DNA from: a virus
Lineage: Duplodnaviria; Heunggongvirae; Uroviricota; Caudoviricetes
DNA length: 64,000 nt
Virus record (IMG/VR): IMGVR_UViG_2851976983_000001
Location: 32,001 to 96,000 of that record
Reading direction: 5' to 3' (one strand)
Below the pieces are notes generated by a model. The model worked only from the letters and a program-made list of their open reading frames with translations. It searched no databases and had not been told where the DNA came from. This document shows, piece by piece, positions 19,870 to 21,283 of this stretch (positions are counted from its first letter, which is position 1; each line of letters begins with the position of its first letter). The translations under genes and the position numbers were made by a program.

Positions 19870-20600
19870 TATTTCGCGGCGGTACTTGTTGATGGACAAC
19901 CAGGCAACCAGGAACTTTCCCGCAACTTGCACTTTACGTTAGTGCCAGACGAGGCTTGTGGCGCGCTCACATAGAGCAAAGATCTGGAATCCTTCTCGGT
20001 GGTTGACGGCCGCCAGATTCTTCGATCTTATTGGATGTATGGAATCATCCATGTTGTGAAACCAGGGGCTACATAGGCAACAATGATTTCACCAGAGGGT
20101 TAAAGAATCCTGCTTTCACAACGTTGAGGCCGCTGAACCGATTTATGTTCGACCCAACATATTGATCAGTCACTACAGCTCTGTGGAATCACCTGTATGA
20201 TTAAAAGAAAAACAGTGACCTCAACGTTGTGCGCTGGCTAACCAAGCCAGCCGGGTTACGTCGCCGCTTTTAACCCAAGATTAAACGACATAAGTAATGG
20301 AAATGACGTAACAGGATGGACGGTCAGCTGGCTGAAACCGGGATGATGGAATGGAATGAGGAAACCAACCGTCCATCCTGTTACTTCATCGAATAGGGCA
20401 TGGGTGGTGCAACATGCCCTATCCTGCGTTCTGAAATCACACTCGCTCAGTGTGTCCCATTTCGGTGACGAGGCTGGAAACTGACCTCGCTGGTGTTTGG
20501 CTTCTTAGGCTACTGCCAGGTACGTATCTTCGTTTGCAGTTATATTTAACGTTCAAACAGTCGCATCTCAACGAAAACAAGTGAATCTTATACGTATTAA
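19870..20600. ncRNA. ORF-free structured block with at least five stable hairpins (candidate structured RNA or DNA site)
   Basis: Inverted repeats 20117-20129/20219-20231 (13 bp), 20309-20324/20368-20383 (16 bp), 20393-20402/20413-20422 (10 bp), plus 6 bp hairpins near 20235 and 20437. Confidence 0.3.
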
Positions 20601-20616
20601 ATAAGTAAGTAAATGC

Positions 20617-20922
20617 TTATTTTTCTGTGGCTCGTTCAGTTGCTATCTTTTTGATCAAACTCACCTTCTGTTCCGGCGTTCTCGTGATGATGGCCGTAAA
20701 ACGCTTCGCATGAATAGTGATAGTTTCGTTCTCCTTCAGTTCACCGTAGTGAGTCTCCAGCAGAGAACCCAGGCGCCACAGGCCGTCGTCTATGCGTTTA
20801 TGGCTGGCAAATCTGATCAGCAGTAGCTTTACGATTAACTGACCAATGTAAAAGGCATATCCGAAGCCGGCCGCCACAAGGTAGGTTACCAGCCACCAGT
20901 AGAAAGAGGTCAAATTGCTCAT
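20617..20922 (-). CDS. small membrane protein (101 aa)
   Basis: N-terminal hydrophobic segment FYWWLVTYLVAAGFGYAFYIGQLIV; start overlaps upstream stop (ATGA). Confidence 0.5.
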   Translation of the reverse strand: MSNLTSFYWWLVTYLVAAGFGYAFYIGQLIVKLLLIRFASHKRIDDGLWRLGSLLETHYGELKENETITIHAKRFTAIITRTPEQKVSLIKKIATERATEK

Positions 20923-21071
20923 TTCCGCACTCCCGTCTCGTGAACAACCCGATACAGACGCTTACCGATGCGAAGCGTTTTGGTTTCCAGTTCCTGCCTG
21001 ACCATATCGCGACAGATACTGAAGCCGAGGGCCACGCCCCCAGCAAAAGATAATAGGATGTATGGAATCAT
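20919..21071 (-). CDS. small membrane protein (50 aa), not in ORF track
   Basis: Hand-translated MIPYILLSFAGGVALGFSICRDMVRQ...; start and stop each overlap the neighbouring gene. Confidence 0.35.
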   Translation of the reverse strand: MIPYILLSFAGGVALGFSICRDMVRQELETKTLRIGKRLYRVVHETGVRK

Positions 21072-21283
21072 CAGAACGCCCCCGCCTCAGTCAATTGCTG
21101 CAACAGTGAGTGTCCTTTTTCAGTGAGTTGATAGTTCTCCACACATCCCTTTGGCGAAACGTTAGCGACAAGATTCATACGTTCCAGTTTGGCGCGGGTC
21201 TTTGGCTTCCAGTTGGAATAGAACTCTTTCCATTGGCTGATTTCACGCAGAGTTTCCTTCTCCCGTTTACTTAACATGATCAT
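21071..21283 (-). CDS. hypothetical protein (70 aa)
   Basis: ORF track; coupled in gene chain. Confidence 0.45.
   Translation of the reverse strand: MIMLSKREKETLREISQWKEFYSNWKPKTRAKLERMNLVANVSPKGCVENYQLTEKGHSLLQQLTEAGAF

Follow-up and report, generated by a model that had tools for sequence, protein, structure and literature searches.

Why should a short sequence that forms the arms of a putative recombination site also recur singly, kilobases away, inside genes and next to a structured RNA? The question is raised by a viral DNA window of 64,000 nucleotides (nt), positions 32,001 to 96,000 of IMG/VR record IMGVR_UViG_2851976983_000001, to which all coordinates refer unless another element is named. 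Identity of 100% to the Escherichia coli plasmid p500465_152 (CP025897.1, 152.5 kb) and a match of the region to Salmonella phage SSU5 at 97.6% identity mark the window as part of an SSU5-like phage-plasmid. The locus is common to 813 plasmids in the collection. The sequence in question is a 12-mer, found as an inverted pair (a palindrome) just upstream of a tyrosine recombinase gene, int, and as lone copies elsewhere. The reading favoured here, to which we give a probability of about one half, is that the lone copies are recombinase-binding half-sites that do not recombine and would have an accessory or regulatory role, and that the palindrome is the crossover site of Int.

The starting point was a 17-bp direct repeat reported in an initial annotation of the window. 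The repeat is real: the 17-mer GGATGTATGGAATCATC is found exactly at 20033-20049 and at 21056-21072, the second copy having first been placed one base off, at 21057-21073. Both copies contain the arm of the palindrome at 15016-15048, as had been stated, GTATGGAATCAT being exact in both arms. The annotation had also judged correctly that the core 12-mer (ATGATTCCATAC/GTATGGAATCAT) exceeds chance, although its count of three missed a copy in dnaE. There are five exact copies at four loci in the 152-kb plasmid. By chance 0.28 matches with at most one mismatch are expected, and none of 100 shuffles reached five; ranked by repeat number, GTATGGAATCAT is the top 12-mer of the window. All five copies fall within 12 kb around int, and the other 88 kb of the source plasmid hold none. 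A literature search for the 12-mer returned unrelated primers only.

The four loci are referred to below as site 1 (the dnaE copy), site 2 (the palindrome), site 3 (20037-20048) and site 4 (21060-21071). Site 1 (8985-9001, core 8986-8997, plus strand) reads AATGATTCCATACATCC, shares 16 of the 17 bases of the 17-mer and lies inside dnaE, a minus-strand gene that encodes G-C-M-E-S-L at this point. Site 3 (20033-20049) is non-coding and lies on the minus strand, which reads GATGATTCCATACATCC, between a structured RNA block and a gene for tRNA-Asn. Site 4 (21056-21072, minus strand) covers the start codon and codons 2-5 of a gene for a membrane protein of 50 amino acids (aa), together with the stop codon (TGA) of a 70-aa open reading frame (ORF); the overlap with the ATG of the small membrane gene (20919-21071, minus strand) had been correctly noted. 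A degenerate copy, TTGATTCCAAAC, is found within int itself (14300-14311, plus strand). It has two mismatches to the 12-mer in the window and encodes V-W-N-Q adjoining the catalytic lysine; as the 11-mer TGATTCCATAC it is exact in the Salmonella, Klebsiella and L012-type lineages (L012 being the lineage of Klebsiella plasmid pMB7868_2). This int-internal copy is largely explained by protein constraint, and its status as a site is uncertain.

The lone copies have a longer sequence in common, the 15-mer ATGATTCCATACATC, the last three bases of which (ATC) correspond to variable spacer positions in the palindrome. They lie 5.0, 6.0 and 6.0 kb from the palindrome, none being within 300 bp of it. 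A partner arm was sought beside them at any nearby spacing, including 6-8 bp, with up to three mismatches, and none was found. Their orientation is uniform, in that every lone copy points towards the palindrome: the dnaE and int-internal copies from the left, sites 3 and 4 from the right. This rule is kept in three deep lineages. Since all lone copies point at the palindrome, each left/right pair resembles a palindrome split apart by kilobases.

The palindrome lies 100 bp upstream of int and has perfect 13-bp arms around a 7-bp spacer (AATGATTCCATAC-ATAGTAG-GTATGGAATCATT). Across about 100 loci the arms do not vary, while the spacer takes at least eight forms. The module of int and palindrome also occurs in plasmids of Erwinia, Pantoea, Chimaeribacter, Xenorhabdus and Providencia, and its arms follow the divergence of the enzyme. 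They are identical to those of the window in Chimaeribacter (57% Int identity) and in Nissabacter-type elements (60%), and identical except for G/T at position 1 in Klebsiella pMB7868_2 (58%). In Erwinia, Pantoea, Xenorhabdus and Providencia, where Int identity is 44-47%, the arms are TGACTCCAGAC, with the same 13-7-13 layout and position. Thus, TGATTCCATAC goes with Int identities of at least 56% and TGACTCCAGAC with 44-47%. Several of these plasmids (Erwinia, Pantoea, Chimaeribacter) lack the helix-turn-helix (HTH) gene that neighbours int in the window, so the arms are best assigned to Int. A module that recurs in unrelated plasmids, with arms that change with the enzyme, points to 15016-15048 as the likely crossover (core) site of the adjacent tyrosine recombinase, and agrees with the annotation in calling the 12-mer a recombinase half-site. 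Inverted arms of 11-13 bp around a spacer of 6-8 bp, an adjacent recombinase with the catalytic residues and a fold of core-binding and catalytic domains, and co-evolution of arm and enzyme, which characterise core sites of the lox/FRT/dif type, were all found.

Signs of recombination at the palindrome are indirect, and consist of spacers flipped in place and breaks in homology at the distal arm. The asymmetric spacer is flipped (TCTATAG versus CTATAGA) between close relatives with identical flanks (locus L104, 17938-17968, against L105, 18864-18894, and L114), and the main lineages also differ in spacer orientation. The truly variable region of the locus, 1.2-6.7 kb in length, separates the palindrome from the tRNA genes and starts 0-30 bp from the distal arm (15049-19750 in the window, 14232-20000 in locus L006). 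Its content differs from lineage to lineage and includes grx/gp49/phoH, a YafO toxin-antitoxin system, colicin immunity, AbiGi and CYRAN_43. In Yersinia pestis pMT1 it holds the whole caf1 F1-capsule operon, and the homology of both p88COLEC-2 and pMT1 ends 0-3 bp from the palindrome arm. In the window itself, a 242-aa ORF without family assignment (18318-19046), possibly a defence or accessory gene, lies in a stretch missing from SSU5.

Among 5426 complete E. coli genomes, the palindrome was found in 204, once per genome and on plasmids only. No chromosomal attachment site was present on any E. coli chromosome in this set, and the reading of the palindrome as such a site was rejected. This distribution argues for a role in plasmid maintenance and against one in chromosomal integration. 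A scan of species representatives gave seven matches, all seven with int adjoining the palindrome and five on contigs of about 110 kb or less.

Int (13814-14917, minus strand) is a 367-aa tyrosine recombinase with a Pfam Phage_integrase domain (PF00589) and the conserved catalytic residues R185, K211, R284, H307 and Y316. Matches to its AlphaFold model (pLDDT 86.6) are lambda Int residues 75-356, Tn1549 Int 82-397, XerH, IntI and Cre; the two best, those to lambda and Tn1549 Int, leave out the arm-binding domain. The N-terminus of the model is helical and shows no arm-binding fold, and the arm-binding domain PF13356 is not found in this Int family, although it is present in homologues at 34% identity or less. 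An integrase of the lambda/P4 arm-binding type was rejected on these grounds. A single-sequence search of Int against solved structures gave no match, and a profile search a weak one to XerH. From sequence and model, Int looks like an active, two-domain enzyme. In PLSDB, 1078 complete plasmids have an int homologue.

The predicted int promoter (14944-14991, minus strand) has a -35 element TTGATC (14986-14991) and a -10 element TAATAT (14963-14968), and a LexA box read from the sequence, CACTGTATAAGTAAACAGTA (14944-14963), overlaps it. The CTGT and ACAG of the box and both promoter elements are invariant in seven relatives, and L012 has the same layout; it is missing in Erwinia, Xenorhabdus, L117 and Providencia. 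An automatic promoter scan did not flag this promoter. Convergent with int, and overlapping it by 6 bp, is the XRE-type HTH gene (13433-13819), a putative lysogeny repressor (CYRAN_45). SOS-induced transcription of int could run antisense into this repressor gene. The phage isolate SSU5 is without int, the HTH gene and the palindrome.

If the palindrome is likely to be the core site, are the lone copies anything more than sequence similarity? Conservation was followed in 80 IMG/VR loci recovered through the ligase gene that precedes site 4, and the segment from site 4 to site 3 was clustered at 97% identity into 21 clusters. With few exceptions, these 80 loci have exact copies of sites 3 and 4 and of both arms. 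E. coli pF404-2, phage Cyrano and three Klebsiella elements (76-78% identity) have each of the five copies without change, and all copies stay exact in relatives at 71-78% nucleotide identity. Across about 100 related elements the lone copies do not vary, silent codon positions included. Plasmid pMT1 keeps four copies, caf1-linked sequence having replaced site 3.

At site 4, ATGATTCCATACATC is the sole invariant run of at least 7 nt in 655 nt of coding sequence across the 21 clusters. Its third-codon positions are fixed in 4/4 cases against 9/211 elsewhere (Fisher p = 8e-6), and it forms the first 15 nt of the 50-aa gene even where the protein is only 45-50% identical. Site 4 has been lost in the L012 lineage, in Buttiauxella and through one slippage deletion in locus L080, where site 4 and the start of the 50-aa gene (window 21041-21076; L080 11683-11690) were removed between two 8-bp GGGGGCGT repeats; the same locus has a 256-bp insertion in the structured RNA block. 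In the L012 lineage, site 3 is retained alone and the 50-aa gene starts TTGATCCCATATCTT, which still encodes M-I-P-Y.

At site 3, the 15-mer is invariant in 20 of the 21 clusters while its flanks diverge, the exception being the int-less SSU5, and it is also found in the divergent lineages L012 and L117. The annotation had recognised that site 3 reads MIPYIQ-stop, and this holds; its description as a decaying remnant does not. Nor is the upstream copy absent from relatives, as it would be if the 12-mer were simply conserved coding sequence of the small gene. At site 1, a block of 16 nt is invariant across relatives, and the 17-mer is exact in L117, the dnaE of which is 71% identical in nucleotides overall. 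The third-codon positions of site 1 are fixed in 5/5 cases against 95/195 elsewhere; the amino acids beside GCMESL vary, and the loop is unrelated in the dnaE of lineages without site 1. This strong conservation indicates that the lone copies are held by selection on the nucleotide sequence itself, since silent positions are fixed and site 3 is non-coding yet invariant.

The region in which sites 3 and 4 lie has a second conserved element. All genes around these sites are on the minus strand. In order of transcription, the DNA ligase gene (21443-22765) is followed by ORFs of 58, 70, 50 and 101 aa, a non-coding block of about 570 nt (567 bp, 20050-20616), site 3, a tRNA-Asn gene of the same direction (19794-19868) and an intrinsic terminator (19616-19635). 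The segment from site 3 to site 4 thus holds the non-coding block and two small membrane-protein genes (50 and 101 aa), as had been described. The core of the block (20230-20600) is more conserved than the neighbouring genes. Of the 105 pairs in its consensus fold, 13 show compensatory changes; the fold also includes about 11 G-U pairs that are nearly invariant and would become A-C mismatches on the other strand. An Rfam scan of the block found no family, only tRNA and spurious microRNA matches. Judged from these patterns, the block is a structured RNA, so far uncatalogued, that lies on the gene strand and is probably transcribed with the flanking genes. A literature search for RNA-seq or small-RNA data on pHCM2-type plasmids was unproductive. 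In L012, ARAGORN calls an 83-nt 'tRNA-Phe' (14462-14544) between the structured block and site 3, so that tRNA and site 3 come in the opposite order to that of the window; the call may represent a tRNA-like element.

How might the lone copies work? The 12-mer would be the DNA-binding half-site of the phage-plasmid's own Int, and two inverted copies 7 bp apart would form a crossover site of the lox/dif kind, most likely serving plasmid multimer resolution and exchange between plasmids. Each lone half-site could hold one Int monomer and, having no partner arm, could not recombine. Of the terms offered by the annotation for the two copies it saw apart from the palindrome, 'accessory or pseudo recombinase sites' fits best. 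That Int binds the lone copies is an inference from shared sequence, and what would follow from binding (a roadblock, looping to the palindrome, or both) is speculation. One option is that the lone sites let the level of Int influence the operon in which they lie, with its small membrane proteins, structured RNA, tRNA and dnaE; another is that they loop to an Int dimer on the palindrome.

A number of observations weigh against binding of Int at these sites. The lone-copy bases ATC fall in what is variable spacer in the palindrome, so that more than arm recognition may constrain the last three bases of the 15-mer. The lone sites are not overlapped by a conserved promoter: a promoter scan gave one weak match at site 4, with a -35 that is not conserved, and none at site 3, which makes a promoter or operator reading of the lone sites appear unlikely. 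Accessory motifs repeat the motif of the core arms singly, as is seen here, but lie tens of bp from the core, and distances of 5-6 kb far exceed those known; the end copies of Tn5401 alone lie at a similar distance (PMC7157771). In two elements without int the lone copies are almost intact: SSU5 has one change (A to G, in site 3) and L017 has none. These losses of int may be recent. The Xenorhabdus and Providencia phage-plasmids, with TGACTCCAGAC arms, show no lone copies within 10 kb of int that could be compared with the arm type; these elements are also without the module of ligase, small ORFs and RNA near int. Finally, an apparent co-variation of A to G at position 1 in L012 is contradicted by L107.

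What else could explain the pattern? The annotation had also considered the repeat as the scar of an imported segment, or the boundaries of a 1-kb cassette excisable by Int, with the direct repeats as hybrid sites. Recombination between a full site and a pseudo-site is an established mechanism that leaves hybrids with one perfect arm, and the DNA just beyond the distal palindrome arm is a hot spot of cargo change, as seen in p88COLEC-2 and pMT1. However, the segment, which would then vary in presence among relatives, is found in 76 of 76 related loci spanning both sites, usually with 986-1039 bp between them, and these loci show no inversion, excision or variable presence of it. A segment that is always there is neither a cassette nor an import scar. 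No variant has a junction at either repeat, the sole junction case (the L080 slippage) lying elsewhere. The copies are also direct, whereas integration leaves inverted perfect arms; their 'spacer' sides (ATCC...) are unlike the palindrome spacer; and a neutral scar would have decayed like its flanks. Sequence comparison has largely refuted this explanation, and we regard it as scarcely tenable. It is also very unlikely that the copies have no separate function and reflect coding constraint (MIPYI, GCMESL), constraint on a start region, or chance. The 50-aa protein does retain MIPY even without the DNA motif, and V-W-N-Q in Int is constrained by the protein, but such constraints do not account for five exact 12-mers, for silent positions that are fixed, for an invariant non-coding site 3, or for a dnaE loop that is free to vary where site 1 is absent.

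The main rival, although itself improbable, is that the 15-mers act in RNA, pairing in trans between transcripts. Because all genes lie on one strand, transcripts of sites 3 and 4 carry AUGAUUCCAUACAUC, and the mRNA of dnaE (and int) carries the exact complement. The start codon of the 50-aa gene might thus be hidden by the dnaE mRNA or by a palindrome hairpin, or dnaE or int might be targets of the structured RNA's tail. The complementarity is perfect over 15-17 nt, which goes beyond the 12-nt arm and would account for the three extra conserved bases, and a pairing network that had become frozen would leave all 15 positions unchanged at several loci, as is seen; site 3 directly follows a structured RNA on the gene strand, and the orientation rule equally separates a sense from an antisense class. 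The idea leaves unexplained why the 11-12-mer forms the arms of a palindrome that is kept with int in plasmids lacking these genes. No compensatory changes are seen, since the 15-mers do not vary; the dnaE copy lies 250 nt into the coding sequence, an uncommon position for a regulatory target; and L012 keeps site 3 without the dnaE or site 4 copies. After RNA pairing in probability, and likewise improbable, comes another DNA-binding protein at scattered operators, either the XRE-type HTH protein or a host factor. Lone asymmetric sites with one double site resemble the C1 operators of phage P1, and the lone copies are confined to phage-plasmids that also carry the HTH gene, which is expressed in lysogens of the relative Cyrano (PMC9928086). 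Against this, the palindrome occurs with int alone, without the HTH gene, in Erwinia, Pantoea and Chimaeribacter, while Xenorhabdus and Providencia have an HTH homologue and no lone copies. An XRE dimer would fit poorly on half-sites with centres about 19-20 bp apart, none of the sites overlaps a conserved promoter, and a different palindrome, AAACAAnTTGTTT, upstream of operons looks more operator-like. The 70-aa winged-helix-like protein was rejected as a binder, since L091-L094 and L117 keep the sites but do not have this protein.

Returning to Int as the binder, the nearest precedent for lone copies, by analogy, is TnpI of the transposons Tn5401 and Tn4430. Near both of its ends, and far from its resolution site, Tn5401 has extra copies of the motif to which TnpI binds, and expression is regulated by the binding of TnpI (PMC7157771); Tn4430 has DR1 and DR2 as its accessory motifs (PMC2847244). 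In both cases and here, one motif is present as an inverted core pair (IR1-IR2 for TnpI) and as lone, non-recombining copies, which in Tn5401 are kilobases from the core (PMC7157771, PMC2847244). The present case differs in that the lone copies are 5-6 kb off, three of them in coding sequence and none at an element end, the host is a phage-plasmid rather than a Tn3-family transposon, and Int is no relative of TnpI by sequence.

Other systems match in part. The inverted 13-bp arms, short asymmetric spacer, adjoining recombinase gene and plasmid prophage recall Cre/loxP of P1 and the lox, FRT and dif sites in general, and the role, multimer resolution, is likely to be similar. The spacer is of 7 bp here rather than 8, and the fold of Int is nearer to lambda Int (core-binding and catalytic domains), Tn1549 Int and XerH than to Cre. 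FRT has a third, dispensable copy of its arm; for loxP, no conserved lone half-sites kilobases away are known. In integrons, attI consists of a simple site with the IntI-binding repeats DR1 and DR2, and intI is LexA-controlled. The likeness extends to the LexA box in the recombinase promoter, the site beside the gene, variable cargo starting at the distal edge of the site, and extra copies of the motif. In contrast to integrons, no attC-like boundaries or cassette-organised cargo are found here, the lone copies are kilobases away and not at cargo edges, and IntI is only a distant fold match. The C1 operators of P1 include identical asymmetric single sites spread over kilobases as well as double palindromic ones, comparable to the scattered asymmetric sites and one inverted pair described here; the five copies here, unlike those operators, are not on conserved promoters, and the inverted pair co-evolves with a recombinase and not with a repressor.

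Some further features of these elements were recorded. The plasmid of the window is mosaic in make-up. Its int shares 99.5% identity with the E. coli/Cyrano lineage, whereas the ligase side (from 19754 onwards) shares 97.6% with SSU5 and just 78% with that E. coli lineage; the switch falls between 15135 and 19500 (window 13200-19750 compared with relative L002). A second repeated palindrome, (G)AAAACAAnTTGTTT, is located just upstream of operon starts (CobT, helicase and others) at 12890, 28001 and 30931 of the window and at 4212, 6911, 27836, 27861, 35620 and 37396 of L012; it is conserved across distant lineages and could act as an operator or as a phage promoter element. At gene boundaries (3325, 20602, 23284, 28787, 50823 and 62811, with variants at 24185 and 40631), a further repeated motif, TAAGTAAGTA(C), gives small AT-rich hairpins (TAAGTA...TACTTA) with T runs behind them; in one case the hairpin comes directly after the stop codon of the 101-aa ORF. 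Weak termination or RNA processing, specific to this family, is a possible role. The matches that scored above the Rfam gathering threshold were a cspA thermoregulator (185.7 bits) and an ALIL pseudoknot, a frameshift element of the insertion sequence type (121.8 bits), at 5035-5453 and 45954-46070. The dnaE gene of Klebsiella pKP2094-111K is split by a NUMOD4 HNH endonuclease gene (L005 6755-9600), and pF404-2 and Cyrano have, at the position of RecA, a 2.3-kb gene annotated as a LAGLIDADG homing endonuclease and intein-like (L003 3574-5913).

SSU5-like phage-plasmids are very common in Enterobacteriaceae and include Y. pestis pMT1 and the pHCM2-type plasmids; members of the family carry virulence and resistance cargo. 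The likely crossover site of the family recombinase is now defined, and variable cargo, including the pMT1 caf1 capsule operon, begins at its edge. Both the 33-bp site and the 15-mer mark this plasmid family sharply, which is of use in annotation. It is unusual for lone recombinase half-sites to be held constant within genes, silent positions included, across deep divergence. Here they would be written into dnaE, the start of a small membrane-protein gene, possibly int, and the tail of a structured RNA. A broader proposal, which we regard as tentative and rather doubtful, is that Int, the promoter of which is LexA-controlled in most lineages, doubles as an architectural or regulatory protein, through split looping sites or polar roadblocks at inward-pointing half-sites, and so ties the level of recombinase to expression of the lytic replication module or to replication; or else that the same 15-mers make up an mRNA-mRNA pairing network. 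Should Int bind the lone sites, these phage-plasmids would be a simple example from nature of a recombinase put to further use as a site-specific DNA-binding regulator or as a looping protein.

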